From Anthoceros angustus (taxonomy: Eukaryota; Plantae; Anthocerotophyta), in NCBI GenBank assembly GCA_010909165.1, contig VJWM01000134.1:661812-725811 (forward strand): DNA of 64,000 nt, read 5' to 3'. The notes under the pieces were generated by a model, which was given only the letters and a program-made list of their open reading frames with translations, did no database searches and was not told the origin of the DNA. Shown here piece by piece: positions 16,986 through 55,046 of the stretch. A program made the position numbers and the translations under genes. Each line of letters starts with the position of its first letter. The stretch's first letter is position 1.

Positions 16986-17029
16986 GTATGTAGGGGAAGT
17001 TTGGAGGAGTAACGTGTCCGTAAGTCTTC

Positions 17030-26480: not shown

Positions 26481-28109
26481 CCTCCCACTTCCCGCCACCA
26501 CCGGCGCTCGCTCCTCCTCCATTGCTCTTGCCTTCCACGCCCGGTGCCCTTTTTCTTCACTCCCCTTGCGCCCTTCTGCTCCCTACTTTCCTATTACGTG
26601 CACTTCCGGCTACCTCGTGTCGGCGTTGGCGACTCCGCGTATCTCATGGTGGGGTTCCTAATTATGTCCAGTGCACTTGTCTTCTGCAATGGCCCTTGAG
26701 CCGCCCATTTCGCTCCCAATTTTCCCTCCATGCGTGTCTGAAATGGCTGCTGTAGTTCGTGCAGCGTGCACCGCCACTGCCGATCATGAACTCAGCTGTC
26801 CACCACCCGGTTTAGCGAGCGGATGGCAACCAAACAATTATGTCTCCGCGCGATTTGTCAACCCTTTTGGCCTTCCTTCTGTTCGTAGCCTTAACCGCCA
26901 ACTCCTTTCCTCTTCACATGACATTCGCAGTGGAGCGTATACTGGACTGCCCAAAACACAGCACTATTCAGAATCATTATTTGGGGTTTCATACCAATTG
27001 CATATCATCACTTTATCCGGGTCAGCCGTCTCGGTCCACGCAAACAGAAGCTGCGGCTGCCACCACCACTATTACTACCATTGCCACTACTGCACAGCAT
27101 GGCAAGCTCATAGCAAGCTAAAAACAACAGCAAAAGTGTAGCGCTAGACTCCTTCACTGGCGTCGCCAAGACACCGTCCCGTTCTCCCGTCATCCATGGC
27201 ACTCCCGCCTCCTCCATCGCCTTCCGTTCCACAATGGCCATCCCCGCTTGGGCCACCGCTCGTCCTGCCCCGATTCCTTGCCCTTTGTCCCACCGATGCT
27301 TCACCTCCTTGGCCGAGCACCTTGTGGCGACAACGTCCCTTTTCTGGCTCTGGTGTGTGTTGTGATCGTTAAGCTGCACCTGTAAGTCCTCCCTTCAGCC
27401 TTCCGCACCACCTCCTCGACGTTTCCACTAGCCACTCGCGATGCAAACTCCTCACTTCCATTCCAGGAGGTGCCGTGCGGAAAAGCGATTGCCGCGTCCA
27501 GCCATCGGCCGAGGAGTCGCGCCCCTCAGCTCCTTCCCTCTCCATCCATCACACTTGCGGCGGTGTTTCGTCCACAGCAGTTCGCACCCTACACCCGTGT
27601 AGAAAAAGCGGGAGGTGTCCACGCGCATAATCACCTCCACACCAATCGCCCGACAACAGGGTGGCGGCGCGGCCGGCCACCACCATTCTATGCACGATCG
27701 TCGGCATATGTCTCGCCCCTCCGCCATTCTTAGTGCGCTTCTTGCTTTCCCCTTGGTATGTCCAAGTTCGTTCTTCCCATCTCAGCATGATCGGGACTGG
27801 CATCCCAACGTTCACCTGCCGCTTCCTATTGGAACCCACCGGACGGGATGGGTTTGCCGCAGCCATTCCATCGCTTGTCACTCGTCCTCCACACTCGCGC
27901 TATTCCAGGTGATTTATACACCACCCGATCCCCGTTTGTCCTTTCGCCATTGCGGAAATCGCATTGGAAATGCCGCAGGTAACCTACCCTCATCACAAAG
28001 CGATGGCAACCTGCAGTTCCCTGCCGTAAAAACCTAGTTAACAAGCCCAACAGCCTTTGCTAGTCTGCACTTTGATTCAAAGATGGAACAACCCAAGTGC
28101 AGTCATGCA

Positions 28110-29990
28110 CGACAACGTATTGGCATGCATCCTGGAAAAACGTCCTTCGCCATAGGCCAAGGATGTTTGTCCAGGATGCATGCAAACATTGCCATAGGGC
28201 TATGATAGCGGAGGGAAAAACCGGAAACCAACTTGGCAAGCACCATGTTGGGTTTTCACGTTATTCCTGCATATATAGACATATATTATATAACTATTTT
28301 CAAAGACCAGGTCATGAACAATGACTTCTACCATAGGCCAAGGCCAAGGACCCTTTTCAATGATGCATCGAAAGAAAATTCCATTGGCGAAGCATACAAA
28401 AGGGAAAAAATGGAAGGCAATTTTTCAATGCATCCTGGGAAAAGTGCCTACGCCATAGGCCAAGGAACTGTGTCGAGGATGCCTGGAAAAAATGCCATGG
28501 GCGAAGGATAGAGGGAGAAAAAACTACAACACAAGTTGTCACATAACATGCAGGTTAACAGTGTTATTCATGCATATATAGACATACATAATATACCTCA
28601 GTTCAAAGACGAAGACATTAACATTCACTTCTACCAAAGGCCAAGGACCCTTTTCAATGATGCATCGAAAGAAAATTCCATTGGCGAAGCATACAAAAGG
28701 GAAAAAATGGAAAGCAATTTTTCAATGCATCCTGGGAAAAGTTCCTTCGCCATAGGCCAAGGAACTCTGTCCAGGATGCATGGAAAAAATGCGATGGGCG
28801 AAGGCTATAGGAAGAAAAATCTACAACAACATATCATGCGAGGTTAGCGGTGTTATTCTGCATATAGACATACATAATATACCTTAGTTCAAAGACGAAG
28901 ACATTAACAATCACTTCTACCAAAGGCCAAGGACCCTTTTCAATGATGCATGGAAAGAAAAACCCATTTGCGAAGCATACATAAGGGCAAAAACAAAAGG
29001 CATTTTTCGAATGCATCATGGACAAAGTACCTTCGCCATAGGCCAAGGCACTTTGTTAATGATGCATGGAAAACATTGCCATGGGCGAAGGATAGAAGAA
29101 GGCAAAACCAGAACACAACTTGTCACATATCATGCGGTATACGGTGTTATTCACGCATATATGAACATACATATACCTCATTTCCAAGGCGAAGACATTA
29201 AGTCACTTCTACCAAAGGCCAAGGACCCTTTTCATTGATGCATAAAAAACCCATCCATGAAGCATACAAAGGGCAAAAAAAAGCGGTTTCCATTGCATCT
29301 GCACAAAGTTCCTTAGCCATAGGCCAAGGAACTTTGTCGAGATGCATGGAAAAAATCGATGGCGAAACTATAGGAAGAAAAACTACAACACAACTTGTCA
29401 CATATCATGCGAGTTAACGGTGTTATTCACGCATATATAGATACATAATATACCTTAGTTCAAAGATGAAGACATTACCAAACACTTCTACCAAAGGCCA
29501 AGGACCATTTTCAATGATGCTTCGAACGAAAAACCCATTTCGAAGCATACATGAGGCAAAAACAATAGGCATTTTTCGAATGCATCATGGACAAAGTACC
29601 TTCGCCATAGGCCAAGGCACTTTGTTAATGATGCATGGAAAACATTGCCATGGGCGAAGGATAGAAGAAGGCAAAACCAGAACACAACTTGTCACATATC
29701 ATGCAGGTATACGGTGTTATTCCTGCATATATAGACATACATAATATACCTCATTTCCAAGACGAAGACATTAACAGTCACTTCTACCAAAGGCCAAGGA
29801 CCATTTTCATTGATGCATGCAAAGAAAAACCCATCCGCGAAGCATACAAAAGGGCAAAAAAAAAAGGCAGTTTTCCATTGCAGCCTGCACAAAGTTCCTT
29901 AGCCATAGGCCAAGGAACTTTGTCGAGGATGCATGGAAAATTTGCTTTCCAAGGCGAAGATAGAGGAAGAAAAACGAGCACATCACTGCG
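28110..29990 (+). repeat. AT-rich tandem satellite, ~290-bp monomer x ~6.5
   Basis: GCCATAGGCCAAGG at about 28149, 28451, 28749, 29034, 29315, 29603 and 29903, alternating with TTCTACCA(A/T)AGGCCAAGG. Confidence 0.92.
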
Positions 29991-29999
29991 TGACATGCT

Positions 30000-30960
30000 T
30001 AGTTTTCAACTTTCTCCTACATATATATCCATATATTATATACCTACCTTTCTATGATGCAAGCATGTCCTATCACTCCTACTATAGGCCAAAGTCCAAG
30101 GAACTAGACATAGATGTTATTTATGTCTATATATGCAGGAATATAGGCATATGTGCACATGCTCTAACAGGCGCACGTCCCTTCGCCATAGACCAAGGAT
30201 GTTTTACCTTTAAATCTACTCTGCCATCCAACTATTGACACACACATATGGGAAGGGCATGCCTAGCTGTAGTATATGTAGCACTAACTTCCTTGGCCTT
30301 TGGTGATTGAAACATCATGCATGATGTTCCATTTTGTGACAAATCCCAAAGGCCAAGGATGACATGTCTTTTGTAGTATATGCCTCTCGCCTTCCTTGGC
30401 CTTTGCCATGGAAAACATCATGCATGATGTTTCCTCCTTATTCCTACATATATAGCCATATATTATATACCTACCTTTCTATGACGCAAGCATGATCTCA
30501 CTCCTACTATAGGCCAAAGGCCAAGGAACTAGACATATATGTCATTTATGTCTATATATGTAGGAATATAGGCATATGTGCACATGCTCTTACAGGCGCA
30601 CGTCCCTTCGCCATAGACCAAGGATGTTTTACCTTTAAATCTACTATACCATCCAACTACTGACGCACATATGGGAAGGGCATGCCTAGCTATAGTATAT
30701 GTACCACTAACTTCCTTGGCCTTTGGCGATTGAAACATCATGCATGATGTTCCATTCTGTCAAAAATCCCAACGGCCAAGGATGTCCTGTCTTTTGTAGT
30801 ATATGTCTCACTACCTTCCTTGGCCTTTGCCATCGAAACATCATGCATGATGTTTCCTTCTTTCAAATATCCCAAAGGCCAAGGATGTTATGTCTTCTGT
30901 AGTATATGCCTCACTATCTTCCTTGGCCTTTGCCATCAAAACATCATGCATGATGTTTCC
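30000..30960. repeat. Array of 103/423-bp units with inverted CAAAGGCCAAGG motifs and perfect palindrome AACATCATGCATGATGTT
   Basis: Palindrome at 30311, 30414, 30734, 30837 and 30940, each shortly after CCTTGGCCTTTG. Confidence 0.92.
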
Positions 30961-33900
30961 TTCTTTCTTCCATTTCTTTAAAACATATCTTCCTAGTACA
31001 ACATCAGCATGATACCATATAAGCGTACTATACATGTGTGAACAAAAATATATCATACTTATAATCCATCTGTTTTTCCGCCATCCATTCAAGTTCTCAT
31101 ATGCCAGGGACTAATTCACTATATATGCTTGGGTTCGGGGCTGTATACTGTATGGAAGAAGTGATATGACATAAACATGATTCGTTCGGCAGCGGGGCCG
31201 TCCGTGTTCATGTCAAAATCCCGCGTTCATATGAAAAGCACGATATTTTGAAGGCGGGCGCGACGCCGATTCACGGCCGTGGCGGTGCATGGAGCTTGTT
31301 TGCTGAAGATGTGAACCGCGTCTTCCCCAAGCGTCGCGCGGGCCGCATTCCTGTCTACGGCCTCATGTCGCGGTCCCTCTGCACCAGATTACTTCAAACA
31401 TAAAAAACGCGTCTTCTAGAAGGGCGCGTTTAAAGACATGTCGATCTCCGGTCGGCCTTAAACAATGCGGACATCCGACGAGGTGCATCTTTGGAGCGGC
31501 GCACGGCGCGTCGACTCCGTCTTTCCGTTCTAATGAATGTCCCATGTCCCGTCTGGCCGGGCGGGCATTCTTTTAATCTAAGCGGGGTTTGAGGCGTTTG
31601 GGGCGACTCCACGAAATAATGGCCCTGCACTCTTGTCATGCGGAAAGAATGTGAAGCGGGAGGCGGCGCTCCGTATCTTCCTTGACCTCCGGCTGGTCCT
31701 CCATCAGCAGACGGACTTCGCCCCTCTGCCCTCGCACCACAGGAAATCGGGCGGAGGCGTGTCAGAAACATCTAATTTACGGTGGGTGCACCAATCAAGT
31801 GAAAACATGGCGAGCGAGGAGGCCGTCGCCGTCCCGAATCTTGTGCCGATGGCGGTGGCGACATTCTCGGAGATTGGGTGAACTCAGGCGAGGATGCAAA
31901 TGTCTTCAAACAAATCCCCCTTTGCCAAAATCGGTCATCGCGTTTCCAAGCTCCTGCCTGCTAGAATTCCGACGCGCGAGGCAATCCGCAAACCCCTCGG
32001 TGTTGCGGACACCGGCGCCCTGCTGGCGGACCCTTGGCAGTGGCGATTGCGAGCTCGGCGTCGCGATGCAGGCGCGGCGCACGGTACCTTGGGATCGGGG
32101 CGGCGGCGTGGACGGTGGCATCTTCCCGCCTCCCCGCACGGCGGCTTCATCGGCGGCGGTGCAGCGTTCGCATTGCGATCCTCACAGATGACCCTCTCTG
32201 TTCCCGAGAACCGCATCACAGGCGCTCACGTTTTGCAAGGTCGTTGTTGCATGTGGGCACATATCCCAGATAGCGCCGTTCATGGCAACTCACAGCGGGG
32301 GTCTTGGAAGGAGGATGGCGCGGCGTGGCGATTCGGCGGAATGATGTGCAGCATGGGGGTGGGCCGGACCGACTCGTTGCATCGAGGCCGAGATCCGACG
32401 ACCAAAGTGGCTTCGGCGACATCGCCCGACCTCAAGGCACCACAGTTGCTGCGGTGGAGCCTGGTGATTGGCGATTCCCGGATGAAAGGATGGCGGCGCC
32501 CTCGCGCTTGTTGTGGGGCGATGGATGGTCACCTGGAGCCTCGGTCGCGCGGGCAGCTCACTGCGGCCATCCGCCATTGGCATCGATTGCGAAACTTTCT
32601 GGCCTGGTTGCGGCGTGGCGATGCCTTCCGTCCTCCTAGGCTGCGGCGACCATCTCCCGTGTAAAGCGGAATGCTCGGCGCGTGAGGCCCGTTTTGACAT
32701 CCCTGCGCGGTAGCGCGAGGAGTGCGGATGGGGAATCCGGACCGCACTGCGGTGTTGACGAAGTGCACTCGATTATGGAAGCGGCGAGGACGCCGGATAG
32801 ACACGGGAGGGTTTGCGGCGGTGGTCGGCGTCCGGGGTTGGAGCTTTACGATGTCGGGACAATAAGCTTCATCGGCGGTCGCGCCGCGGCGAGCTCTTGA
32901 GCTCTTTGGAAGGCGTAGACCCGGCCCTCGATCTAGGGGCCATAGAGCTGAGACTTTGGAGACATGGGCCTCAACCAACCTCGCCACTCTGTTGATGAGG
33001 AGGTTGCTGCACTGTGCCACAGGAATGGAAGGAAGCGCCAGGCGGGCGAGGGCGTGATTTGCGGGAGGCGTCGCGGTTTACGGAAGTGGCGCAAGAGGCC
33101 CGCGATGCCGCCAACTCCGCTATCGCGGTTCGCCTCACAAATACCACTCTGGAGCCCATCCAGCAGACGGCCGCCGCGGCAGGCGGATTGTCTTGAAGGT
33201 AGGACCTCCTGCGCCTCTTGCCATTCGGCATTGAAGTGCCCGGCTCTGCGCCATGGCCACTTTCACGTTTTGCGGGTGGCGGTGGGGCTGGCGGAATCAC
33301 GAGGCCTGTCGACCTCTTCAAGCAACATTGTGATGGGAAGTATGTGTTCCCGGTTCCATGTCGATCGCAACCCGGCATGGGGGGTTGTTTACGGAGCAGT
33401 TGGCGAGGGCCGACTCGCGGCATCGGCGAGCATGGCGGCAATTACAGAATCCCATGTTCATGAAGCTGCGTGTTTGAGGCGAGGACAACCGGGGCTCGGG
33501 GACCTTTGCACCACATCAAAGGAAGTCCATCTCGCGGATGGCGATTGTGTGGTGAGTCGGCGTGTGTGTGGAGTGTTCATCATAACTGCGGGCCTTTCAT
33601 TCTAACACATGAGCCTCGACTCACGAGGCTCGGTTCTTTGGCTACCTCGTGTACATGGTCTTTGGCGGCCGTGCAAGTGTCATGCCCCATGGCCAGTGGC
33701 CATTACTGCACGCCCTTGGCGGCCGGATGGGCCAGGCGTGCACAAGGTGTGGCAAGATCGCCGGGCTCATCGTTCTTGAGGAAGGCCTTCTTCGGACATG
33801 AAAGCGTGCTGAGGTGATGGGTGTGTTGTCTATCTTTGAAGAAGGCCTCATGGGCAAGTGCGGACCGGCAACATGCGGCCATCAAGGAGGTTGCCCTCAT

Positions 33901-35575
33901 CACGGTGGGGACCGGAGTTTTTCGACATTTTGCGGCTTCGTGGGACCTTTGGGCATGGAGGTGAGCATGGTCCGGAGGCTAGCAGGAGCTCTTGTTTAAA
34001 AGTGCTTGCATGTTGGAGGGCTTGTGGGGCAGGTTGAGACTTGTGTGGACTTGGGCCTCGAGCGGTGATGCCCATTGTGAACATGTTATCTTTGGAGGTG
34101 GTCGATTTCTTTTCTCGGTGCTCAAGGATGTCTGACGGAGATGACTTCTGAGCAGGACGACCTTTGAGGCATGCACCGGGCCGAAGACATGTTCGTTGCG
34201 GCACGGTCACGGAGGTGTCTTTTTGCAGACGAGCTAGCGTACACCTTCATAGACAGCGTGTTCTTTGGTGAGCGAATTGTGGTGTTTAAGTACCATTGAT
34301 GCGGGAGGACGGCTCCCACAGCCATGGCGTGCGGCGGACATTGCTCCTTCCATTGTATGACTCGAGAGGACACTATGTGCGGCGGTCTTGACGCCATTTC
34401 TCACAACACGGTTTATGGCATGGCCTAGCCGATTCTTAGAACCATTGTGAGGAAGGTCGTTGTGTGATGTGTGATGTCGAGTTGGGAGTGTGGACTACAT
34501 GTTTAAAATGCCATCCCATTGGTAATTATTGATGAGCAAATTGCGTGTTCATTATGCGGTGTTGGATGTGAGTATGTGGGGCGAATCGGTGGCTTGTGCA
34601 CACAAAGGAGGCGAATTAATGCACCAGCTGGCAGAGGACAACGTAACGGCGCGTGCGGTATCTTAAGGCAGCGGCGCGGTGAGCGGCCGGTGCCTGCAGG
34701 TGTGGGCATCGCGATGCGGCCTATTCAATTTCAGCGGAAGGGAAGAGTCCATACTTGGTTGAGGGACTCCATTCTCTGGCGAGTCAGAGTTGTGAAATCG
34801 TGGAGCCATGGCGGGTCATCAGGCGAAGCGGCGGCGTCGGCGCAACTGTGTCGGCAACCTATGGGTGAAGGACGCCATCTTGTGGGGCGGTCGGTGCGGT
34901 AGTGGGTGTGCAAGTCCATGAGGGGCGTGGGAGAAGGGCAAAGGCTCGGGAGGGTGAAAACATTCATTGAGCAGGAATGAAGTCTGCAGGCGTTGGCTCT
35001 CGCGGTTGGTTTTGCGGGTTAGGGGCCAGGTAGCAGTGGATGCGTTGGGCGGAAGCGAGGCGCCTGGCGTGGGATGAGGATGGCGGCGGGGGGCAGCATT
35101 CCGCGGGGATGGCCATGAACAAGGCAATCCGTCCATGCCCGATGTTGGGCAGCTTGGGGCGACATTCGGTGGCAAGAGGATGGGCCAGGGGACATGGTCG
35201 AGCATATCTTGGAGGTAGATTGGAGGAGGCAAGGGCTGGGATTGGACTCGTGGGTGGTTTTTGGTGCGTGCAGGATGGAACCATGCGGAAGTGGAGGATG
35301 CCCCGGATGAGAGGTGGGCAATGCAGTTGTGGGCGGGCGGGGTTGCGGCATGCAGGGATACCAATTCAGCATGGACATTTCAATTAGGAGCTGCGAGACA
35401 AGAGCTGCGGCAGCGGCGGATTGGTGGGTTGGCGGGTCCAACGGAAGGACAAGGGATGAAGGCGATGGCGGCGTTGAGCGATGCTACAATGGTGGTGTGG
35501 TGAGGCGATGCTGGAAGTCATCTTGTGCTTGAGTGGCGATGGTGCGACCCGGTGTGCGATGCGATTCGATCTCGG

Positions 35576-38500
35576 TGTGGCGGGACTTTATTTGGCGATG
35601 TGACCCGGCGCGCCTAATCCGTGTCGTTGTAGGAAGAAGTCCGTTCCCAAGGGAATGATAGGCCTGCCATCGCTTGTGTGATTCACCGCTCTTAGCGCCT
35701 GCCTCAAGACACACATACTCCTAACTACTCACAACGTTCAGACAGCCCAGATGGCTAAACGTTTAGGGACCCGTCTCTCAGATCGCTCACATACATCCTC
35801 ACATCCGCCTTTCCTCTCTCTCTCACGCTACACTCTTCGCCTTAGAAAAGACGCTGGTTACGCAGCCCCGACCTCCTCGCTGCCGGCCTCTCCGCCCGGC
35901 TCTACACGCCTCCCGAGTTCCTCCGGCTCACGCTGCCAAATTGCTCTCGGACCGCTCGCACGAGTCACCGTCACCCTTCCCCGCACACCACAACGCTAAG
36001 TCCGCCACCGGACCTTGATCAATCTCCCGAGTGCGCTCGCCTGACTCAGACTCACGTTAGCAAGAAGACTCACAAAGGTCCGCAAGAACGCGCATCAACA
36101 CCAAGAGAAAGATGCTTTACTAGCGACCTCGGCCCTCTTATCTGCGCCCAAGGTGGCGTCTTTATTACCCCTATTCGAAACATAGCCAGCTCGGTATACC
36201 CTAATCGGCCGCCTATCCTATCCCTATCTCCTTCGCCGACGTGGAAGGTCCTGGCCCCGCCGGAATGGGTGGTCCAATCCCGACAGCTTGTGGTGCACCC
36301 AATCGGATGATCCGTGAGGCGGGCCCCTCCTCTCCCTAATCCTCGTTCGGCGGTCGACAACCGCCGCTACCACGACGTCATCCTCCTGGCCTCCAGGTCC
36401 TTCGCCGGCCACCACCATCGGCTCCCCTAGCGTAAGTCAAGGGGCTCCTCCCATCAGCCGGCCCCTCGAGGTCTGCCTCGACTCGAACTTGGAGTCCGGC
36501 TTATTTCCTGGGTCCGCCGGCCAGGTCCGACCTGTCGGGTCCGGACCTTGGTCCTCCGGACTGGTCCGGACTTATTACCGAGGTCCGGACTGTGGTCCGG
36601 CCTCCCTCCCACAAAGTCCGGACTCACGCCCCGGGTTTCCTCCCTCACGGACTCCTCCGTGGCTCTCCTCAAGTCCTCCACTGCTCCCGATCGCCTGGTG
36701 ACTCCTTGTTGGCCCCTCCTTCCATGGTGAGGTGCGGGTGCTTACCACCGCATCCGCCTCCTCGCTCGCCTCCTGCTCCTCCGCCGCCTCCCGTCATCTC
36801 CAAACAGGGCCACTAGGGTCCTGTCTTTGTCCCGTGGCCTTCATCTCCTTGAGCCTTCCGTGGGTCCGTCCGCTTGCGCCGCCGAGGCTTCTACCGCCTT
36901 GAGCTCCGTGGTAATAGGCAAAGTCCGAATCGACTTGTTGAATTGCCTCTTCCACGTGTGCCCGAGCACCCGATACTCCCTCCGCCATAAGTGTTCGGGG
37001 CGGGGCCTTGTTGGGCCACCTCCGCCAGATTGGGTGGGTGTATCACGCGAGGCTACAAGGCGGCCTCGGTCACCTCTGCTGCCACTGCTGCTCGCCCAGC
37101 TCGCTTCTCCATCGCCACCATTCCGCCATAGCGCAGCTGCTCCCTTCCGCCTTTCTCATGGACCAGCAGCTTCTTCTGCCCAGTGCTCGCCTCCGCTCAT
37201 TCTCGGCCTTTAGCGCCTCCTCTCCAGGCCGACCTCCGTCCGACTCGGACTTCCTCCCCCTTCAGTAGCTGGCAACGCCCAACTCGATAGTCGCCGATTT
37301 TCCTCCGTCTTGACGGAGCCGAGGCACTCTCGTGCTCGAGGTCGTGGATTCTCTCGTTGAGAATCACCCGCCGCCCGACGCATCTTGGAGTTGTAGCTCC
37401 AGGTCCTGCTGCCTCCATCCGCCGCCGCCCTTCTACCTCTCTGCACTGACTGAGATCCCCTATCTCCCGAGTGCCGCCCTTGCTCGCCTCCATAGCCACT
37501 GCGGCCTTCGAGTTAGCCTCCGTCATACTGACTCTTCCACCGGCCCGATCACGTCTGTAGTGATCCTGCCTTTGCCGCTCCGACCTTCGCCTTTACTGGC
37601 CTCGCCCACTTGGCCCCTCTGGCCGGGCCGCCTCCGAGTCCAGCTCTCTGCTTGTGCGGGCCTCTTAGCCTCTGCTGCGCTTCCCCTCTTCGCAAAGGTC
37701 CTCCGCGCTTGGGCCTCTGAGCTTGCTTCACTGTCGCAACAAGAACCTTGGCCCGGTCCCTGAACCGCCTGGCCTGCTCCGCCACCCGGCGTTCCCTTCC
37801 TCGATCCGAGCGAGGACTCCGCCTTTTCCTTTGCCCCTCCGCCTTCACTTGCTCTTGAGTTCCACCATCCTCCTCCGGGTGGCCTCCACTTCACAGGTCT
37901 TCTCCACTGTACTACGAGACCCCAAAGCATTCCGTCCATGACGGTAGCTGACTCGCCGTGTTTCTTCCACCGCACCGGTGAGGCCCCACAAAGTCCGTAG
38001 TGGGAGCCGGCATTTCTCGGTCCAAGGACCTCCATACCGCAGTCCGAGTAAGTCCGACTGGGTTCTCGGACCTAATCGGGACCCTCAGTCCCGAGTGGTG
38101 AGTCTCACCTCTTGGCCCTCTTGGCCTCTAACTCCTTTGTGCCCTCTTTCTCCGGGCTCGGAGGAGGTGAGGGGTCCGGAGCAAGCTCTTGCCCCTTCCG
38201 CAGGGACTGCCTGGTGGGGCGCTGCCTGACCTCCGCCTCCTTGGGCCACGTCCCTTCGCCTCCTTACCGCCTCTTGACCTCTTGCCACTCCGCAAGGTGG
38301 GTAAGGGTACCGCACCGAGGCCGCGTTGGTAGGCGGCACCGTCCCGCCTCGGCTCCCGAGTTCCGGGCTCGCGCCGTCGTGGTTGTTGGTCGTTCCGGCT
38401 GCCGAGCGCCAACGCCTCCCAGACTCCCTCCTGCTGCCGCCCGAGGGCACCAAAAGGAGGAAGGGGAATCGCCTCCCAAACTTGGGTGGTGAGGGGTTCG

Positions 38501-39851
38501 CCTGACGTATGGAGTCCGGAATCCTCCGGCCCTCCTCCCGAGTCCGCTTGGTCTTGAAGGCGACCCCCACCTCAGGCGCCCTTGCACGCTCTACCCAGGG
38601 CCTCCACCTCCCGAGCGCCGCCTGCTCTCCCTCCTTCAGAGCTCGAAATGTCCCCATACATGAATCGTATGGGGTCACCGATGGCGAGGCTTCGCTCCTT
38701 AGCTTGCGTGCCTCGATCAACCGGCGATAATCCTTCCCGCCTTCCTCACTGAGCGCATGCAGAATACCAACAGTTATCACCAAGGTGATCCACCTTGGTG
38801 AGCAGTTCCAATGGACAATGATCCGGGCTACCGCCTTACTTGTCCATCGGATATCAACCATCCGTTGGTTGTCCGCTGCGTGCCTCGATCGCCGGCCGTG
38901 GCCCTATCTTCCCGCCTTAAGGGGCTGCACCACGCCCCTTCTTCCTCCTTGGGCGGTTGTAGGCCATCCTCGGGACCTCCAAGGTCCATCGCCTCGGTCC
39001 TCCGGAGGTTCTTGGATCGGACCTCCTTGTTGATCGCCACAGATCTTCCCGGCAAACTCCGGACTAGAGTAGCGTTGTCAAAGGTCAGACCATTTGGAAC
39101 ACGCCCAGATGCCACTCGCCACCCCCGCTTCCTCCACCCGGCCCAAGTCCGGATAGCGCCGGTCACAATGTTGCGCTCCACGAGGTCCATGGCTCCCAGA
39201 CTCCGTCGGCTTTTGGGTGCCATTGCTTTCTCCTCCTCTTGTTGTAGGCTGGCGTCGTGGCACGATGTTCCTCCTTCGCACCGCTCCAACCTTGACGCGC
39301 GCCACGCCTGTGCCGGGCGCCCAAAAGATAGCGCCAGAGCCGGATTGCGGAGCGCAAGGACCGTGAGGATTGTCGAGGTCACAGCAAAATGACCTCCTCC
39401 TTGGCCGCCAGGAAGTAACTGGCGGAAGGCGCCTGTCCGAATCGCTGTGGGTGCATGGCTTACTCGACCCTACGCCCGCTTACTGCCTTACGCCGCCGCG
39501 TGCCCGCGGGCGTGAATCTATAACGGCCTGCAAGGTTACGGCCCCGCACTGCATGCCCGACCTCCACTCGTGCCGCCCACGTGGCGCCGCCCGTCCCTCA
39601 CGCCTCTCCTAGGTTACTTTCACTGGCGTACTTATCCTATTTTGACTGAGTGGGTTCCGGACTTATCCGTTACTCCGTAGTCCGGAGCTTGCCATAGTGG
39701 TACCGGGGTCCGTTGTTCACTCCAGTCCGAGTATACTCCGAGCCTCGTCCAAGCGCTACCCCAATTTATTCCTCCTTTTCCCTTTATTTATCCTTCAATC
39801 CTAAAAACAAAACCCTACTTATTTCTAACTCCCGGAAGTGCATAGCCCACA
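35576..39851 (-). repeat. Gypsy LTR, left copy (~4.28 kb)
   Basis: Plus strand TGTGGCGG...GCCCACA. The right end abuts the PPT (39852-39866; minus GAGATGAAGGGAGTA); the left end is where homology to the other copies stops. Confidence 0.88.
36454..39223 (-). CDS. Large sense coding region inside the LTR (copy 1), fragmented by indels; unknown protein, ~900 aa by consensus
   Basis: Starts MAPKSRR. Protein-like blocks recur in the three LTR copies, often in different frames: WEPWTLVERN, WCEWHLDVFQMV, FDNVTLVRSLP, IIVHWNCSPRWITLVI, TPYDSCMGTFRALKEG, WKKHGESATVMDGMLWG, AHVEEAIQQVDSDFAYYH. End approximate. Confidence 0.6.
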
Positions 39852-39879
39852 TACTCCCTTCATCTCATACGCCTCCGCC

Positions 39880-42800
39880 AACACTAAGCATGATACTTCA
39901 CCCGCCACCCGTCACCCGAGTGGGCAGCTCTCCATCTAGTCGCCGTAACGGACCCGTTGTCATATACTTGCACCACTTGGTACGGACCCATCCATCTCGT
40001 GAAGTTTGGAAAATGCATGTGACGACTATCATAAAGGAGGGCCAGGTCCCTTCCTTTACATACTCGATTCGCATCGATCGTGCCAAATCTTGTGGTTTTG
40101 CACTGCATCTTCACTGAGCTTCTTCCTGTCCTCGTGGCCGACAAACCCCAAGAGTCGCCGAGCTGGCTTTCCTCCTCCGCCTCCCTTCCATCATTACTCG
40201 AAAAGTGGGCACTTCAAACTCCACGGCAGGAGAGTGTCCGTAGGTCAAGTAAGGGTCCGTTGTGTGGTCACCTTCTCTCTGTCAACGCCCACGATGGCCT
40301 ATCCTCATGGGCGTAGTTCACTGTGAGTTTATTCGGGATCCTGCAGGATGAGCCCATTTGTCTTCTCTGTCGACCCATTGGCCTTAGGATTGTAGGGTGC
40401 CGTCTTGCGATGATTGATGCGAAATACTCCGTCATGGCGGCCACCACATCATTAAGGAAATGGGTTCCCCTATCACTTACCAAGCGCGGACATCCGTCGG
40501 GGTTATGATGTTCTCGCAGAATTTGGCCACGGTATTTGGAGTCCGTTCTTGCCACCGCCTCTACCCACCGTGCGAGTCCGTTGCCACCGGGATGTATCTC
40601 CTTTGTGTGTGTCTTGTCGTAGGTCGATAGGTCCAACAAAGTCAATACCCCACTTTTCGAAGGTGCCAATATCGGTACTAGCGGCCACCGTGTCGTCGGG
40701 GTTGGCTTCCGATCCGACAAGCATCACACTTCTTCACAAACCGGGTGGGTGTCCCCATACATTGTTGGCCACGTATCCGCTTCAAAATCTTTTGGTGGTG
40801 ACTGTCTTGCGTAGTGTCCACCCCAATCGTGCATTCCTCGACGACCGCTCCTGTCTCTGCCGGTTGCAAGTACCTTCGCTCTACTCCGCCCTAATTTGAA
40901 CACACACCGTTGTACATTCTCAAGGGTCGAGCATAGTGCACGAATGCCTCCTCTCCACGAGTCGATTTTCGGAAGCTCCATTCCCAGGTACCGCCTATTT
41001 CTTCGTGAGGTCGGACGGCAGCGCCCTCCCTTCTCCGCTCGCTAAGGCCGCGCTCGTAGCTTGGGGTTCTGGGCTCCTCCGGTTGTACTTTCTGCGGCAA
41101 CCAATGTCTCATCCGGAACGCATCTTCCGATCTCTCAACACCGCCTGTTTTCAATCGTGAAATCGCATTTTGGTGCCGCCTCCCTTGTCTTGTTTCCACT
41201 TAACGTGAACTCCTGCAGCAACAATATCCACCTTGCTATCCGTCCCAGTGTCCTTTTATTCACCGGATGCGCCAAAGTGGTCTACATAGAACACAAACTC
41301 ACTAGGTAGGTAGTGTCGAATTTCTTGACGATATACCATACCCGGCTTGGCCTCTGTAGTTGTGTATTTTCGTTCAGCGTGGTGAGCTGTCGTCCGTAGT
41401 ACGGATAATCCGCTTGTCGTCCTTCCCGGCTCAAGACTACTCCGATAGCAAAGCGGACACTACTACATACATGAAATTTCTGCTCGATCCGGTCCTCTTA
41501 GAACCGTGCGCCACCAAGGTGTTCTCAGAATCCGAAGGCCTCCTCTCGCTCGTGACGGTCCAAACCTCCTCCTTCCGCAGAGTTCAACTTAGCCGCTCTT
41601 CGCAAAGTCCTTAATAAACCGGCGGTAGTATCCCACCATTCCTGTGAAACCTCACTCCTTTAGGTTCGTTGGGGAGAGATGACCGGACCTTGTCTGGTCC
41701 ACCTCGATTCCACCGACACCCGATGTCCCAGAAGATTCCCTCCGTCATTCCAAAGTAGCATTTCTCGGTGTAGGCTCAATTGAGTCTGGCGCTCAAGCAC
41801 CTTCTTAGATGCCCAAGGTGTTTGTCCCGCTCCCCATGCACACAAAATCATCCAGAATATCTCCATGAAGTCCCTCGGAAGTCACGGAAGACGCGTTGGT
41901 CACCATACGCATGAAGCGACCACAGGCGCTCCGGTCATCCCAAAGGCACTTCTCTTGTAGGCAAACGCATTCCCACTCGTAGTGAAGGTCGTCTTGTCCC
42001 ATCGACTCCCTTAGGTGCAATTGGTTATATCCGAGTAGCCATCCGGAAGGAGTAAGTAGTCCGTCCACCACCTTGTCCAAAATGTCGTCTGAATGGCATC
42101 GGAAGTGGTCCTTCTCCGGCGTTGAGCTTCCTCCAATCTTGGCATACCGAATTTGTCTGGCTGTTTCTTGGGAACCACCACAATCAGCGACCCACTTTGT
42201 GTGATGGGGAAAATGATGCCTCCGGTACTTATCAAGGACCTCCTTCACCTTGATCGAATACTTGGGGTTGAGCTTGTATTGTCGGATTCGGCACCGCTCC
42301 GGCTTCAAATCGATCTTATGCTCCCACTTCTTGAATGCCCTTCATGTCCGTGACCTTGAAGGCGAACACCTCAAAACTCCCCAGTGCTTTAGTCCTTCCA
42401 GTCCGGAGGCATGCCTTTCTTAAACTTGAATTTGCTGGCCGGACCTCCACTTCTTCCACGTCGTCCGGGTTCACTGCCTCTCTCTGCTGCGGCCCAAACC
42501 CTCGTCCTCCTCTCGGGATCGTCCTCTCGCATCCCCATTCTCGAAGAGCTCGTCGGAGGTGAATCGTGTTACTCCTTCGATGTCCGCTTTTCCTTGGTCC
42601 GACTCTTCACTCCCCCCGGGTCCGACCTCCTCTTCACTTCCTTCCTCCGGCCCGTTGTAGGCGCGTTTACAAAACAATCAACACTTCCGCACCAAAGGCA
42701 TCCATGAGTCCATCTCCTCCTCAGCGGATCTTGGCGGGGTACGCCTCCTCGGAACTATCTTGTTCGCCGCTGGAGTCCTCCAGAGGTATACCCTCGGTAG

Positions 42801-45060
42801 TGCTCGTTCCACAATAGGTGTCCTTGCTCCGGTGATAGCAACCCTCCTTCTCGCACCTTAGGGTCCCACCCACCGGCTTGAAGTGAATCTCCTTCCTTCC
42901 AAAGTGTAGCTTGCAGGCCAACCCCATGGCCGCCCAAAGAAACACCTCATACCCTAATGGTCCGGCGGTTTGATCACAACAAAATCCGGTTTGTAGGGTG
43001 CACGCTAATGGTGGCCAAGACTCGGTTAACTCCCCACGGGATCTCTTCTTGACATGTCCGCCATTCTCGAGTCTTCGTTGAGGGTTGGATGTGAAGCCCA
43101 ATTTTCGTGCCGTGGCTTGTGATGAGGTTGACTCGGACCCGTGTCCAACGGTACATCCTTGATGATACATCCAATCTCCACTTGTACCACCCTGGGTCCG
43201 TATGGGACACCACCCTCACTTCCACTGCTACCCTTCACGGCTTTGGTGCTCCGCCGAGGTGGGTTTCCTAACGGCCCGACGGACCTCTTGCCGGATTTGG
43301 GTTATCCTCGTGTCGAAAGGACACAAGGTCCGATTCATCATCGTCCGCCACATTAAAGGCGAGGCTTCTACCCCAATCGAGGATCCTGCTGGCCCTCATC
43401 CTCTCCGGATCACTTGTGTTCGGTATTCTCCGGATGCTTGCGCATTTCCTCCTGCAACATCTCGGTCACCTCCGGACTCGTCCGTGGAAATCCGCCGCGG
43501 AGGCACTGCCCTTCTCCCTCCCCTGCATCGGGAGAACTTCCTTGGGTAATCCCTCCGAGCTGCCGCCCTCCTTCATCGGTCGGATCCTCTGCTGGTATTT
43601 CCGTTTGATTGCCTTCCTCGGCGCGTGACGCTTCTCGATCTTGTTCTTCTTCAACTGGCGCCTTTCTCGCCCTTCCTTCCTGGCCACAGTAGACACCTCC
43701 AAGATTTCCACCCGACTCCCTTCCTTCGACACCCCACCGTACCTTCTTGTTCTTTTCCATCTCGTACCTCTGGGAATCTCTTCCCACTCCGCCAATCGAG
43801 CATCTTGACTTGCCGTGTGCCTCTTAGGTGGTGGCGTTGGTGGTCGGGGTTCTCCGCTTGGTGTGGCATATCGCCCTTGTGCGGGGTTGGGACATAGCGC
43901 ATCGCCATATATGCCCACCGCCACACCCGCTCAAGTCCCCATTACACCTCCTGGAGTACGGACACGCGTTGGAGTAATGGCGGATTCCAGTTCCAGACCA
44001 CGGCCGTCGGAGGATACGAAGGGCTCCCATGCGGTCTTTGCATCGGTGGGGCTCGTTGTATTGTGGACCTCCGGTTGGCGGATACATGGTTTTGGGATAT
44101 CGCGCCCGAGGGGCTTCTGCACTGATAGGCCTCTTCCCATTGCTCCTCGGCCTCCTCCTCGTATTCGTAGTCCACTTGATGCACCGGCCTTGAGGCGGTT
44201 GGATTCGAATGGCCGTGCGGCACACGACACCAGATGCGTCGCACCGTAGTCGGTGTTTTCCGCGCTCTCGGTCCTTAACTGGTTTATCGCGGTCCTCCTC
44301 TCTTTATCACTTTTCCGGTCCTCCCGGACTGCCACCTCCTTTGAGGGAGTCGGGTCCGTGGAGCTTCTGACCCGTGTCACCACCTCCTTCTTACCCCGCT
44401 TCTTTTTAGCCGGGCTTTCTTGCTCTTCTTCTTGGGATACTCTTCCTAGAGACCTCCGTCTCTTCTTGGACGATCGCCTCCTCCAAGACACCTCCGATTG
44501 GTCTTCCTCCTCCTCCTCAAGACTCTTCCTCCTGAGTCCCGAACCCCGCTTCTTCTTCTTCTTGCCTCCTTGAGCGGATTTCTTTATCCTCGATGTAGCG
44601 ATTCCTCGTAGTTTTCGGCCGCTCGACCGCCTTGCCCACGTCCTTCTCGGCGGCAGGACGTGCTGCCATGGGTTTGGCTAGACCGCGAACCACCGTACCG
44701 CTTGCATCGTGGTTGGATGCCGATCCTCGGGCATAGAACTCGATGTACGAGCCTTTTCTCCTTCTTCCCTCGCTTGATTTTCCAACTTTGATAATACATA
44801 CCCCTCTGGTCGATCCTCGAAACCGTTCTAAGAAGGCATTTTCAAAGCTTCAAACGAGGCGGGGGGCATTCTCCTGGTCGGTACTTTCTCCGATATTGAG
44901 CTTGCCCTCTGAGAACCCCTTGGAAAAGCTGGATGAGTCACTCCCTCTGAAGTTGGCTTTGGACACGAAGTCCTCCACAAAGGTCTCCGCATCCGCTCCT
45001 TCTTCCCTCCGAATATGGAGTACGCTTGTTTGGTCGAGTAGGGGCCATGGCTGCCGCCAT
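39880..45060 (-). pseudogene. Gypsy gag-pol, internal domain 1 (frameshifted as assembled)
   Basis: gag (AETFVEDFVSKANF); protease LDTG(S)GVNLIT near 43135; RT IVVVPKKQ, DGYSGYNQ, LDDF; RNaseH; integrase CDAC, WGIDFVGP, SDRGTHF; C-terminal RWMGPYQV. Confidence 0.92.
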
Positions 45061-45306
45061 CGGGTTAGGCGTGTCCCTACCTTCTTCCGCCCCTCCCCTC
45101 GTACACTCGTCTTGGTCCGACAATTCGACGTTCTCCTCCTCCGATCGACGGTGCTCTCGTTGGGTTTGACGCTCTCCTCTCCTCGGCTCGGAGAGCACGC
45201 GAGGTGACCACCCGATCCTCCCGACGGTTCACTCTTGACCGCCGCTCGACCGCCACGCATTCACTTACCTTCTCTTCCTAAGGGCGCACTGCGGCACACC
45301 GATTTC

Positions 45307-45321
45307 ATTCCCGCACGGCCA
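45307..45321 (-). other. PBS, tRNA-Asp-like
   Basis: Minus strand CA-TTT-TGGCCGTGCGGGAAT; resembles the Asp-type TGGCGCCGTTGCCGGGGAT with small deletions. Confidence 0.7.
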
Positions 45322-45324
45322 AAA

Positions 45325-48300
45325 TGTGGCGGGACTTTGCGATGGCGGTAGGCCGCACAATCCGTGTCGTTGTAGGAAGAAGTCCGTTCCCAAGGGAATG
45401 ATAGGCCCGACGCGTTCGTGATTCTACCGTCTTAGCGCCTGCTCGCCTCAACACACACATACTCCTAACTACTCACAACGCGTTCAGACAGTCTGAGTAT
45501 GGCCAAACGTTTAAGGACGTCTTCAGACGTCACATACATCCTCACGCATCATCCTTTCCTCTCTCCTCTCACGCTACACTCTTGCCTTAGAAAAGACGCT
45601 GGTTACGCAGGACCTCCTCCGCTGCCGGGCCTCCGTCCGGCTCTACACGCCTCCGAGTTCCTCCGGCTCACGCTCCAAATTGCTCGGTGCGCTCCCAGCA
45701 CGGGTCACCGTCACCCTTCCCGCACACACCACAACGCGTTAAGTCCGTCACGGGACCTTGATCAATCTCCCCGGAGCTGTCGTGCCTGCTCAGTGACTCA
45801 GGACTCACGTTAGCAAGAAGACTCACAAAGGTCTGCAAGAACGCGGCATCAACACCAAGAGAAAGATGCTTTACTAGAGCATCCTCACCCCTCTTATATG
45901 CGCCCAAGGTGGCGTCTTATTACACCCCTATTCGAGTGATAGCCACCGGTATACCTAATCGGCCGCCTACCTATATCCCCTATCTCCTTCACAGGGAAGG
46001 TCTGGGCCCCCGGAATGGGTGGTCCAATCCCGTCCCGACAGCTTGTGGTGCACCCAATCGGATGATCCGTGAGGCGGGCCCTCCTCTCCCGGAATCCTGG
46101 TTGCTCGGCCCGACAACCGCGTTACGACGTCATCCTCCTCCCCTCCCTCGGGTCCTTCGCCGGGGCCACCACTATCGGCTCCCCTAGCGTAAGTCGGGGG
46201 CTCCTCCTCATCGCCGCAGCCCGGTCCTCGAGGTCTGTCTCGACTCCCGAACTCGTGGAGTCCGGCTTATTTCGGTCCACCGGCCAGGTCCGACCTTGTC
46301 GGGTCCGGACCGTGGTCCGACTTATCGGGTCCGGACTTGGTCCGGACTTATTACCGAGGTCCGGACTTGGTCCGGCCTCCTCCGGGGTCCGGACAAGTCC
46401 GACTCACGCCCACCCGGTTTCCTCCTCACGGACTCCTCCGTGGCTCTCCTCAAGTCCTCCGCTCCCGATCGCCCAAGTGACTCCTTGGCCCTCCTTCCAT
46501 GGTGAGGTGCGGTGCTTACCTCGCCGTCGCATCCGCCTCCTCGTTTCGCTCCTCCTGCTCCTCTCCGCCGCTCCGTCATCTCAAACAGGGCCACTAGGGT
46601 CCTGGCCCCGTGGCCTTCATCTCCTTCCCTTCCAGGGTCCGTCTGTTGGCCCGAGAGGCTTCTACGCCTTGAGCTCGGCGTAATAGGCAAAGTCCGAATC
46701 GACTTGTTGAATTGCCTCTTCCACGTGTGCCCGAGCACCGATACTCCCTCCGCCATAAGTGTTCCGGAGGGGTCTGCGGCTTGTTGGGCGCCACCTCTGC
46801 CACGGTTGGAGTGGTCAGTATCACGCGAGGCTACAAGGCGGCCTCGGTCACCTCCCTGCGCCTGCACTTGCCCCGCCCAGCTCCGTGCTTCCTTCCATTG
46901 CCACTTACCCGCCATAGCGCGTTCCCTTCCGCCTTTCTCATGGACCAGCAGCTTCTTCTCGCCTCCGGCTCGCGCGCCCTCCGTTCATTCGGCCTTAGCC
47001 CGCCACCTCCTCTCCAGCGGTCGACCTCCGTCCGACTCGGACTTCCTCCAGCCTCCTTCCAGAGCGGCAACGCCCAACTCCTTGGATAGTCGCCGATTTT
47101 CCTCCGTCTTGACGGAGCCGAGGCACTGTTTCGCTTTCGAAGTCGTGGATTCTCGTTGAGAATCACCGCCGCTCCGACGCATCTTGGAGTTGTAGCTCAG
47201 TGTGTCCTTGCTGCCCTCCATCTGCCGCCGCCTCCTTCTACCTCCTGCACTGCATTTCTGAGATCCCCTATCTCCCGAGCCTGCACTCCATAGCACTGCG
47301 GCGGCCTTCGAGTTAGCCTCACTACGACTCTCTCCACCGGTTCCCGATCACGTGTAGTGATCCTGCCGCTCTTGCCGCGGCTCACCTTCGCCGCCTTTAC
47401 TGGCCTCGCCCACTTGGCGCCGCTCTAGCCGGGCCCCGCCAGTCCGAGCTCTCTGCTTGTGCCCGGGCCTCTCCGCCTCGCTGCGCTTCCCCGCAGAAAG
47501 GTCCTCCGCCCGCTTGGCCTCTGAGCTTGTTTCACTGTGACAAAGAACCTTGGCCTTGGCCCGAACCGCCTGGGCCTCGCCGCCACCCGGCGTTCCCTTC
47601 CTCGATCCGAGAGGGACTCCGCCTTTCCTTTGCCCCTGGCCGCCTTCACTTGCTCTTGAGTTCCACCATCCTCCTCGGGTGGCCTCCACTTCCCGGGTCT
47701 TCTCCTGTACCAGAGACCCCAAAGCATTCCGCCCATGACGGTAGCGGACTCGCCGTGTTTCTTCCACGGCCAGTGAGGCCCCCACAAAGTCCGTGAGGAG
47801 CCGGCATTTCTCGGTCCGCCAAGGACCTCCATACCGCATCCGAGTAAGTCCGATGGGTTCTCGGACCTAATCAGGGACCCTCACCCGAGTGGTGAGGTCC
47901 GAGTCTCACCCTCTTGGCCCTCTTGGCCTCTAACTCCTTTGCCCCTCTTTCTCCCGGGGCTCGGAGGAGGTGAGGGGTCCGGAGCAAGCTCTTTTGCCCC
48001 TTCCCGCGGGACAGACTGCTCGGTGGGGCCTGACCTCCGCCTCCTTGGGCCACGCCCTTCGCCTCCCACGCCTCTTGACCTCTTGCCACTCAGGGTAAGG
48101 GCACCGCACCTTCCGAGGTGTCACAGGCGGCACCGCCTCTCCGCCTCGGCTCCCGCTGAGTTCGGGGCTCGCAGCCGTGGTTGTTGGTCGTGCCGGTGCG
48201 GAGCCGCCAACGCCTCCCGATCGCCTCCTCCGGCTACCGCCCGAGGGGGCACCAAAAGGAGGAAGGGGAATCGCCCAAACTTCCCTGGTGGTGGGGGGTT

Positions 48301-49610
48301 CGCCCACGTATGGAGTCCGGAATCCTCCCGTCGTCCTCCTCCCGAGTCCGCTTGGTCTTCGGGACGACCCCCACCTCGGCGCCCTTGCACGCCTACTCGG
48401 GGGCCTCCACCCCTTCCCGAGCTCAAGCTCTCCCTCCAGAGCTCGAAATGTCCCCATACATGAATCGTATGGGGTCACCGATGGCGGCTCGCCTTAGCTT
48501 GGCCTCGATCAACCGGCGAAGATAATCCTTCCCACCGCCTCTTCCGAGCGCATGCGGAATACCAGTTATCACCAAGGTGATCCACCTTGGTGAGCAGTTC
48601 CAATGGACAATGATCCGCCCTTACTCGACTCAGATCGGATATCAACCATCCGTTGGTTGTCCGCTGCGTTCTGTGCCTCAAGACGCCACTGGTGGCCCTA
48701 TCTTCCCTTCGCCTTAAGGGGCTCGCACCACGCCCCTTCTTCCTCCTTCGCGTAGGCCATCCTCGGGACCTCCAAGGTCCATCGGGTCCTCCGGAGGTTC
48801 TTGGATCGGACCTCCTTGTTGATCGCCAACATCTTCGGGCAAACTCCGGACTAGAGTGACGTTGTCAAAGGTCCAGACCATTTGGAACACGTCCAGATGC
48901 CACTCGCACCAATTCCCGCCTTCCTCCAGGGCCGAAGTCCGGATAGCGGTCACAATGTTGCGCTCCACGAGGGTCCATGGCTCCCAGATCCGGCTTTTGG
49001 GTGCCATTGCTTTCCTCCTCCTCTGTCAGTAGGCCGAGTCCGGCACGATGTTCCTCCTTCGCGCTGCTCCAACCTTGACGGTGCGCCACGCTTGGACTGG
49101 CGCCCAAAAGAGCGCCAGAGAGCCGGATTGCGGAGCGCAAGGCTGTGAGGATATCTGAGGTCGCGCAAATGACCTCCCTCCTTGGCGCTTGGAAGTAACG
49201 CTGGGCGGGCGCTGTCAATCGCTGTGGGTCCGCATGGCTTACTCGACCCCCACGCCCGCTTACTCGCCTTACGCCGCGCACCGCGGCGTGAATACTTATA
49301 ACGGCCCAAGGTTACTGGCCCATTGCATGCCCGACCTCCACTGGGGCCGCGCCGTCTGTCCTCACGCCTCCTCCTAGGTTACTCGTACTTATCCTATTTT
49401 GACTGGAGTGGGTTCCGGACTTATCTTACTCGGCGTAGTCCGGAGCTTGCCATAGTGGTACCGGGTCCGTTGTTCACTCAGTCCGGAGTATACTCCGAGC
49501 CTCGTCCAAGCGCTACCCCAATTTATTCCTCCTTTTCCGCCTTATTTATCCTTCAATCCTAAAAAAGCGAAACCCTACTTATTTTAACTCCCGAAAGTGC
49601 ATAGCCCACA
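45325..49610 (-). repeat. Gypsy LTR, middle copy (~4.29 kb)
   Basis: Flanked by the PBS on the left (45321) and the PPT on the right (49611-49622); TGTGG...CCACA termini. Confidence 0.9.
46200..49007 (-). CDS. LTR-internal coding region, copy 2 (fragmented)
   Basis: ORF 48714-49007 begins MAPKSRIWEPWTLVERN; the same downstream blocks as copy 1 follow. End approximate. Confidence 0.55.
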
Positions 49611-49639
49611 TACTCCCTTCTCATCTGCGCTCCGCCAAC

Positions 49640-54799: not shown

Positions 54800-55027
54800 C
54801 AAGGCGTGGTCCTACCTTCTTCCATGCCCCTCGCCCGTACTGCCTTGGTCCGACAATTCGACCACGTTCTCCCTCCTCGATCGACGGCTCTCGTTGGACG
54901 CCTCTCTCTCTCTCGGAGAGCAGAGGTGACCACGTCCGATCCTCCCGACGGTTCACTCTTGACCGCCGCCCACGCATTCACTTACCTTCTCTTCCTAAGG
55001 ACGCACTTTGCGCACCACGACGATTTC

Positions 55028-55043
55028 ATTCCCGCAACGGCCA
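55028..55043 (-). other. PBS, tRNA-Asp-like
   Basis: Minus strand CA-TTT-TGGCCGTTGCGGGAAT. Confidence 0.72.
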
Positions 55044-55046
55044 AAA

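Follow-up and report, generated by a model that had tools for sequence, protein, structure and literature searches.

Protein-coding genes that lie within or overlap a long terminal repeat (LTR), and are copied together with it, are familiar from animal retroviruses, as in the U3 genes sag of mouse mammary tumor virus (MMTV) and nef of human immunodeficiency virus (HIV). In plants, the internal domain is where the extra open reading frames (ORFs) of Ty3/gypsy retrotransposons have been described, and what they do has long been an open question (PMC7264820, PMC6317226). Retand TRP28, the plant mobile domain (PMD) of Ogre, and the ORF0 of Tekay and Retrosat2 are accessory ORFs of this kind, for which DNA-binding or regulatory roles have been proposed (PMC11963269); Retrosat2 is described as combining LTRs above 3.2 kb with an extra ORF (PMC3485330). 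Among DNA transposons, the VANC21 protein of VANDAL21 (MuDR) is reported to bind a short motif amplified in the non-coding parts of its own element and to remove methylation (PMC5735166), and modeling studies (PMC13547354; 10.1101/2024.09.27.615353) link VANC by structure with MAIN and with the plant mobile domain, a domain also encoded by retrotransposons. Here we analyze a stretch of 64,000 nucleotides from Anthoceros angustus (contig VJWM01000134.1, positions 661,812 to 725,811 of the forward strand; hereafter, the window, numbered from its first letter) that contains an array of gypsy elements with LTRs of more than 4 kb. That these LTRs harbor a gene of their own appears highly probable to us; we lean toward the fuller reading that the array is a tandem pair of non-chromoviral Ty3/gypsy elements whose LTR-borne gene encodes a VANC21-like, anti-silencing product.

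Comparison of the window with itself reveals three repeat copies of 4.2-4.3 kb that alternate with two segments of 5.4-5.5 kb on the minus strand, in the order LTR (59237-55047), internal domain, LTR (49610-45325), internal domain, LTR (39851-35576), one unit of the array spanning 14.0 kb; in self-blastn, the array shows 84% identity across 14,755 columns, in which 726 gaps are opened. All three copies, namely LTR A (3'-most, TG...CA, 4276 bp), LTR B (the shared middle copy, 4286 bp) and LTR C (5'-most, 4191 bp), start with TGTGGGC and end with GCCACA. A purine-rich tract is located immediately upstream of positions 39851 and 49610, just past the end of the integrase (polypurine tract, PPT; 39852-39875 and 49611-49634, minus strand), and TTTTGGCCG directly follows the LTR ends at 45325 and 55047, where a tRNA-Asp-like primer-binding site (PBS) is found (45306-45321 and, in the second copy, about 55027-55043, minus strand). 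In the noisy sequence of the window, this PBS is 3-4 bases off the canonical Asp form given in PMC2844528; in the two clean relatives described below, L004 and L018, it is one base off. Since LTR B is flanked by a PPT on one side and a PBS on the other, its length of 4286 bp is independent of the array ends. Thus, the giant LTR of about 4.3 kb proposed in the original prediction from this sequence is real, and the claim that the unit contains no shorter repeat holds as well: within LTR A, there is no shorter LTR-like repeat, only short repeats at chance level and a cluster of GTCCGGAC palindromes.

Of the LTR limits proposed originally, those next to the PPT and the PBS stand; the outer ends of the array lack a matching target-site duplication (TSD), the plus-strand flanks being TCGG on the left and CCGC on the right. 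Sequencing error, recombination or a mis-join are possible causes, and the array ends may derive from two insertions or from a mis-join. The flanks (35572-35575 and 59238-59241) differ, but each conforms to NCGN, which is given as the preferred target of Phygy. Arrays in which LTRs and internal domains alternate in this manner are reported to be common in plants, mostly among gypsy elements, and in rice 10 of 28 such arrays have perfect TSDs (PMC11899658). Compared with these tandem arrays with shared LTRs, the present one is ordinary, and its value is in fixing the LTR ends.

Both internal domains (39852-45324, 5473 bp, and 49611-55046, 5436 bp; minus strand) consist, from gag to the PPT, almost wholly of the polyprotein. 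Frameshift-aware alignment to the clean proteins of two metagenomic relatives (L004 and L003), on which the Pfam searches were run, placed gag at 45042-44486 and pol, with the order protease (PR), reverse transcriptase (RT), RNase H (RH), then integrase (INT), at 43673-39890 of the first domain; in the second domain, gag aligns at 54790-54183 and pol at 53453-49647. Both domains are colinear with gag and pol of L004, with 45% identity in pol over about 1190 residues, sequencing errors included. The L004 proteins contain the Pfam domains Retrotrans_gag, RVT_1, RT_RNaseH, Integrase_H2C2 and rve; a protease motif was recognized by eye. No additional RNase H or chromodomain is present in the window pol as aligned end to end with L004, and Pfam detected no extra RNase H family in pol of L003, L004 or L018. 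The PPT lies within about 40 bp of the pol end in the window. With gag, the PR-RT-RH-INT order, TG...CA LTRs, PBS and PPT all found and a TSD missing, the element is a Ty3/gypsy non-chromovirus.

Against the REXdb table (PMC6317226), this element departs from listed features of Athila (position of the ORF), Tat (additional, archaeal-type RNase H, aRH) and Phygy/Selgy (size and PBS). It resembles Athila (OTA; PF03078, PF20167) in having no additional RNase H and a sense accessory ORF downstream of pol, and in the feature-level likeness of the protein; the Asp-like PBS, with its 3-4 deviating bases in the window, may be a further likeness, Athila being listed with a PBS for tRNA-Asp (72%) or Asn (REXdb table, PMC6317226). 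It differs in that the PPT directly follows the integrase and the ORF is inside the LTR, that no transmembrane segment is seen, and that the Pfam cut-offs are missed. From TatI-III, Ogre and Retand it is separated by the absence of the aRH, which Tat Z1/Z2 of non-flowering plants are also described as lacking (PMC10508981). An internal domain almost wholly occupied by the polyprotein is shared with Phygy, Selgy and Tat Z1/Z2, the overlapping gag and pol frames of the relatives are a further likeness to these lineages, and the NCGN flanks correspond to the Phygy target; however, Phygy (7.7-10 kb) and Selgy (4.4-6.7 kb) are listed with a Trp or Ala PBS and with no extra ORF in that table (PMC6317226), as opposed to the unit of 14.0 kb, the Asp-like PBS and the extra ORF found here.

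The coding signal within the LTRs has to be read against the quality of the window copies. The copies carry a frameshift roughly once in 20 codons; gag-pol of the first internal domain is frameshifted about every 50 nt, and pol has 55-78 breaks per copy. Between the LTR copies there are 13-14% substitutions and 169-182 gap events, concentrated in noisy patches that alternate with perfect blocks; uncorrected long-read error is the likely cause. Because of these frequent frameshifts, no intact ORF can be read in the window. Nevertheless, an ATG is found at 39223, 49007 and 58619, 603-628 bp from the 5' end of the LTR, in good agreement with the offset of roughly 600-630 bp given in the original prediction; the start codons themselves are confirmed, and the proposed N-terminus MAPKSRR is present in LTRs A and C, with MAPKS common to all three. 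When stop triplets of the sense strand were counted in blocks identical in all three copies, the ORF zone contained 20 against 31.0 expected, compared with 39 against 32.5 in the LTR head plus tail; in the controls, the corresponding numbers were 61 and 81.1 for pol, and 18 and 38.1 for gag. The depletion in the ORF zone relative to head and tail has p = 0.015, the three copies not being independent. Similarly, the ORF zone has a period-3 signal like that of gag-pol (z 2.1-3.8), whereas z does not exceed 0.7 in any head or 3' tail of the three LTRs, with the exception of one 400-bp piece after the ORF in LTR A that scores 2.0. The coding-like zone so delineated is about 2.5 kb long (LTR positions 629-3200), and the coding signal from the window alone is modest.

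Several further searches with the window sequence itself were uninformative. A composition-only frame-path test lacked power (z 0.5-2.2 for the ORF, 1.1-3.2 for the gag and pol controls). Pfam gave no match among 41 frame pieces and the homolog searches with an ORF piece found nothing, results that carry no weight as the positive controls (an RT piece, in the latter case) failed too; the same applies to the comparison of window pieces with the atlas, PDB sequences, phages, viral contigs and prokaryote genomes, in which none matched. Pfam on 18 whole frames with stops replaced by X yielded nothing beyond RT_RNaseH_2 (E 0.29) and two hits due to chance, and a degenerate pattern derived from the window ORF matched no metagenome stretch.

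Clean relatives provide a more readable picture. A metagenome scan with an RT motif yielded 20 loci, comprising 6 gypsy relatives and 14 chance matches; among the 6, only L003, L004 and L018 extend beyond pol. The L004 and L018 contigs, presumably plant DNA in environmental samples, carry intact gag and pol, with overlapping gag and pol frames in the relatives. In each of them, a PPT lies 60-90 bp or less beyond the pol end and runs through GGGGTAA into the LTR start TGTGGGAG; this start recurs, in inverted form, as the LTR end adjoining the PBS TGGCGCCGCTGCCGGGGA at the opposite end of the contig. A homologous ORF begins with an ATG 514 and 660 bp inside the LTR in L004 and L018, respectively, that is, in both relatives with both LTR ends visible. 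The LTR 3' end is not repeated before or within the part of the ORF that is present; hence, these LTRs exceed 1.5 and 2.2 kb, and that of L018 would be about 4 kb long if its ORF equals the length of its closest relatives. Family members with a short true LTR would have placed this region in the internal domain; the opposite was found in these two relatives. The ORFs of L004 and L018, compared over 69 shared codons, differ with proportions of 0.76 at synonymous (pS) and 0.30 at nonsynonymous sites (pN), the synonymous sites being saturated; by this comparison, the LTR ORF is under purifying selection. The common layout, the family homology and this selection support the original notion of an accessory gene borne by the LTR. 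The 3' part of the L018 LTR also holds a direct repeat of 219 bp.

The third contig, L003 (40% GC), contains an intact ORF of 557 aa (425-2098, minus strand) whose start is separated by about 230 bp from a PPT-like GAGGAGGGGAGAC with TG upstream of it. This ORF has a weak Transposase_32 match (E 2.5e-4; 21.4 bits versus a cut-off of 45) and a coiled coil, and may be a second LTR-borne accessory gene, the LTR end not being on the contig. We do not count it in the family described here because it does not align to the window and has an hhalign probability of 2.8% against the family.

The L004 ORF retrieved 11 long proteins, and their profile retrieved 1287 clusters at E<=0.001. A profile of the N-terminal domain was built from those 67 of 194 proteins that cover it and aligned to the window with frameshifts allowed. 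It matches all three LTRs on the sense strand and in register, at LTR positions 650-1240, with scores of 89, 85 and 76 for A, B and C (z 8.5, 6.2 and 5.1 against column shuffles) at a break penalty of -7, the best tile outside the LTRs scoring 57; at -8, to which the observed break rate corresponds approximately, z is 8.6, 6.1 and 2.4. Moreover, the forward score exceeds the reversed one for 65 of the 67 family members. For the closest relative, P0082, which begins with MAPRTRK, the alignment to LTRs A and C starts at residue 1 and at the window ATG; P0082 scores 134, 112 and 86 versus shuffle maxima of 68, 69 and 72, P0082 having been picked after the fact. Significance is reached only with the 67-sequence profile: the alignment of the single relative L004 to the window LTRs is weak (z 2.6, -0.5 and 2.4), as is that of a narrow 12-sequence profile (z 2.3, -0.1 and 0.7). 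As judged from these alignments, the first ~220 codons of the window ORF are shown to be homologous to a large family; the domain extends over 38548-39223 in copy A, from the ATG at 39223, and over 48430-49007 in copy B and 58021-58619 in copy C, all on the minus strand. In LTR A, the rest of the coding-like zone (36680-38547, minus strand), by eye a linker followed by charged, coiled-coil-like sequence, is without significant homology. A match of 34 residues (E 0.02) in the satellite at 28-30 kb was judged to be due to chance.

What the protein might do is suggested mainly by structure prediction. Two models of the N-terminal domain of relatives, with predicted local distance difference test (pLDDT) values of 94 and 93, were each compared with 48,161 chains, and in both searches the only chain with Z>=5 was DNA-bound VANC21 (9lnk_A): Z 6.6 with an rmsd (root-mean-square deviation) of 4.2 and 197 of 225 residues aligned for the first model (next hit 3.7), and Z 6.5 with an rmsd of 4.1 and 191 of 217 for the second (next hit 4.0), the match spanning about 88% of the model. 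In a language-model feature search of the atlas, 23 of 30 matches were Transposase_32 and 3 were ATHILA, at 0.91. Neither the family members nor the L003 ORF reach the Pfam gathering score of Transposase_32 (PF20167) or ATHILA (PF03078), so that, of the Pfam and structure checks originally proposed, the former produced nothing above the cut-off and the latter this resemblance. A PDB sequence search with the family profile detected coiled coils only; in the long members, a conserved region resembling a coiled coil follows a linker. The fold match is suggestive, and the models make a VANC-like fold of the N-terminal domain reasonably probable. The shared predicted fold with VANC21 and with Transposase_32/ATHILA would point to a soluble, DNA-binding, anti-silencing protein as the likely product. 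The proposed likeness to VANC21 and to MAIN/MAIL1 would include the predicted fold over about 190 of 220 residues, the domain followed by a coiled coil, and amplified short motifs. VANC, however, is carried by a DNA transposon and is described as dicot-specific (PMC13547354), and the identity is 11-13%, with the likeness known here from models.

If the gene functions in this way, the following scheme can be envisaged. A TATA-like word followed by pyrimidine-rich blocks that are identical in the three copies (36049-36145 in LTR A, minus strand; TATAAG itself occurs only in LTR B, at 45893-45898) is a candidate promoter and R start near LTR position 3700-3800. With a promoter there, the first 3.7 kb of the LTR would be U3 and the ORF, upstream of that promoter, would belong to it, so that the gene would be copied into both LTRs in each round of reverse transcription and retained in solo LTRs. 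For expression of the ORF itself, either a spliced RNA or a promoter within the initial 600 bp of the LTR might serve. Its soluble product would then bind clusters of short palindromes in the very LTR that encodes it and counter host silencing. Candidate binding sites are the GTCCGGAC palindromes, four of which are clustered at the end of the coding-like zone of LTR A (36539-36623), with five each in LTR B (46303-46394) and LTR C (56008-56110), and none in the 35.6 kb to the left of the array. The most over-represented motifs are CGGACT/AGTCCG in window LTRs B and C, TCCGGA in L004 and L018, and CCAATT in L003. Amplification of short motifs in the cognate element, a trait of VANC and PMD, is thus seen here as circumstantial evidence, TCCGGA occurring also in the coding parts of L004 and L018. 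In these two contigs, where TCCGGA is the top hexamer, CCGG is about four times more frequent than expected, also within pol and in all codon phases.

Several observations weigh against assigning such a gene and such a function to the window. The longest stop-free piece is 272 aa, so that the single frame of ~2.8 kb encoding ~900 aa that had been proposed initially is not confirmed, and the 25 long family members have 491-709 aa, compared with about 850 codons in the window. The middle and C-terminal parts of the window ORF score z <1 against the family profiles (-1.0 to 0.7), and the block from EEMPAHY to DGMLWG, previously considered conserved, is shared only by the three array copies. Among the four break penalties tried (-7, -8, -10 and -12), the profile z falls to 6.9, 4.2 and 1.3 at -10 and to 2.2, 3.7 and 1.0 at -12, there below the best tile outside the LTRs; plain hmmsearch places a piece of the satellite above the LTR piece. 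The VANC21 match has Z <8 at 11-13% identity, for which the tool warns of a common arrangement; the two models, which share most of their alignment rows, were made from relatives, not from the window protein; Foldseek against the PDB and viral models returned nothing at E<=0.001, and Pfam recognizes Transposase_32 in 1 of 68 members, at E 0.005. Finally, pol of L004 is likewise rich in the palindromes, whichever of the three codon phases is considered, and another bias might be responsible.

Given these observations, the rival explanations differ considerably in plausibility. The most serious of them, though in our judgment rather unlikely, accepts the LTR gene as real and assigns its product to the virus-like particle or the integration complex, as a partner with a structural or regulatory role that would oligomerize via its coiled coil and serve in RNA packaging, nuclear import or target-site choice. 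The coiled-coil-like region conserved in the long members fits such a role, as do the models of the Athila domain and VANC as coiled-coil pentamers with many predicted host contacts (PMC13547354), and a shared fold does not show function; but the only fold match is to a DNA-bound anti-silencing protein, and the family-specific short motifs are amplified in the LTR. We would put an anti-silencing function, which is an extrapolation from fold and motifs, at about an even chance, with a particle or integration role next. Less plausible still, and improbable on the whole, is a decayed relic in the LTR of a gene that the family formerly had, with the window copies truly broken in this host and no product of ~900 aa: the short stop-free pieces, a stop common to the three copies near 37850 in the most helix-like frame, and the C-terminal part without detectable homology would be explained, but gag-pol is broken at a similar rate, the copies differ in the patchy manner of uncorrected long reads, and the stop depletion in the ORF zone matches that of pol.

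Two further explanations seem to us most improbable. An env-like membrane protein, as has been proposed for Athila, or another element nested in the LTR could be invoked on the strength of the 3 ATHILA clusters among the 30 atlas features and of the Asp-type PBS of the relatives, the same as in Athila. It is largely refuted by the lack of any 19-residue window with hydropathy above 1.6 in all 25 long members (maximum 1.38), by the absence of terminal inverted or long direct repeats around the ORF, and by the identical position and sense of the ORF in three element families. A long LTR created by mis-assembly of a tandem array would be in line with the noisy assembly and the flanks without a matching TSD, but LTR B taken alone has a PPT at one end and a PBS at the other, and the independent short-read contigs L004 and L018 have the same layout with long LTRs; the array itself may be an assembly duplication, which leaves the LTR length unchanged. 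The ORF is best viewed as an accessory gene of the Athila/Tat type placed in the LTR, likely within U3, with a likely DNA-binding and anti-silencing product.

In the descriptions compared, none of Retand TRP28, Ogre PMD and the Tekay/Retrosat2 ORF0 is placed in the LTR, and the LTRs of Retand are 315-1194 bp long; the MMTV sag and HIV nef products are unrelated, shorter proteins of animal retroviruses. In a partial, phrase-based literature search, titles and the beginnings of abstracts gave no description of an ORF within the LTR of a retrotransposon; such ORFs may be annotated in repeat databases. An accessory gene borne by the LTR in three element families, with more than 1000 protein clusters, would change what a solo LTR is: the recombination that deletes gag-pol would leave behind an intact gene with a candidate promoter and target sites. 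More tentatively, and with less conviction than the reading we favor, one can imagine that a widespread, hitherto undescribed gypsy lineage of non-flowering plants moved a VANC/PMD-like anti-silencing gene into U3, so that gene, promoter and target motifs form one cassette, which would be duplicated whenever the element replicates and persist in solo LTRs that act in trans against silencing of the family. On this view, VANC-type anti-silencing would be far older than the dicots and would occur in retrotransposons as well. With the VANC21-like predicted fold and the motif arrays specific to each family, a function of these ORFs can be tested directly. Were it borne out, sequence-specific anti-silencing would no longer be confined to DNA transposons of dicots but would include retrotransposons in other land plants, and new pairs of protein and motif would be gained.

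Elsewhere in the window, fragments that, by eye, resemble a Ty1/copia element (gag and RT-like pieces) are found at 2000-5300. The region 11400-18600 contains what we take, by eye, to be host genes for an alpha subunit of the proteasome and for a P-type ATPase of the heavy-metal type whose tail is rich in Cys; the long clean ORFs of this region, in contrast to the noisy repeats, point to a plant genome of compact organization. A tandem duplication of 1.59 kb with 98% identity at 15453-18592 is possibly an assembly artefact. At 25000-26500, the sequence is very GC-rich (65-71%) and of low complexity; it includes short duplications in tandem, and its open frames are long and overlap. An AT-rich satellite that repeats about every 300 bp occupies 28125-30970.

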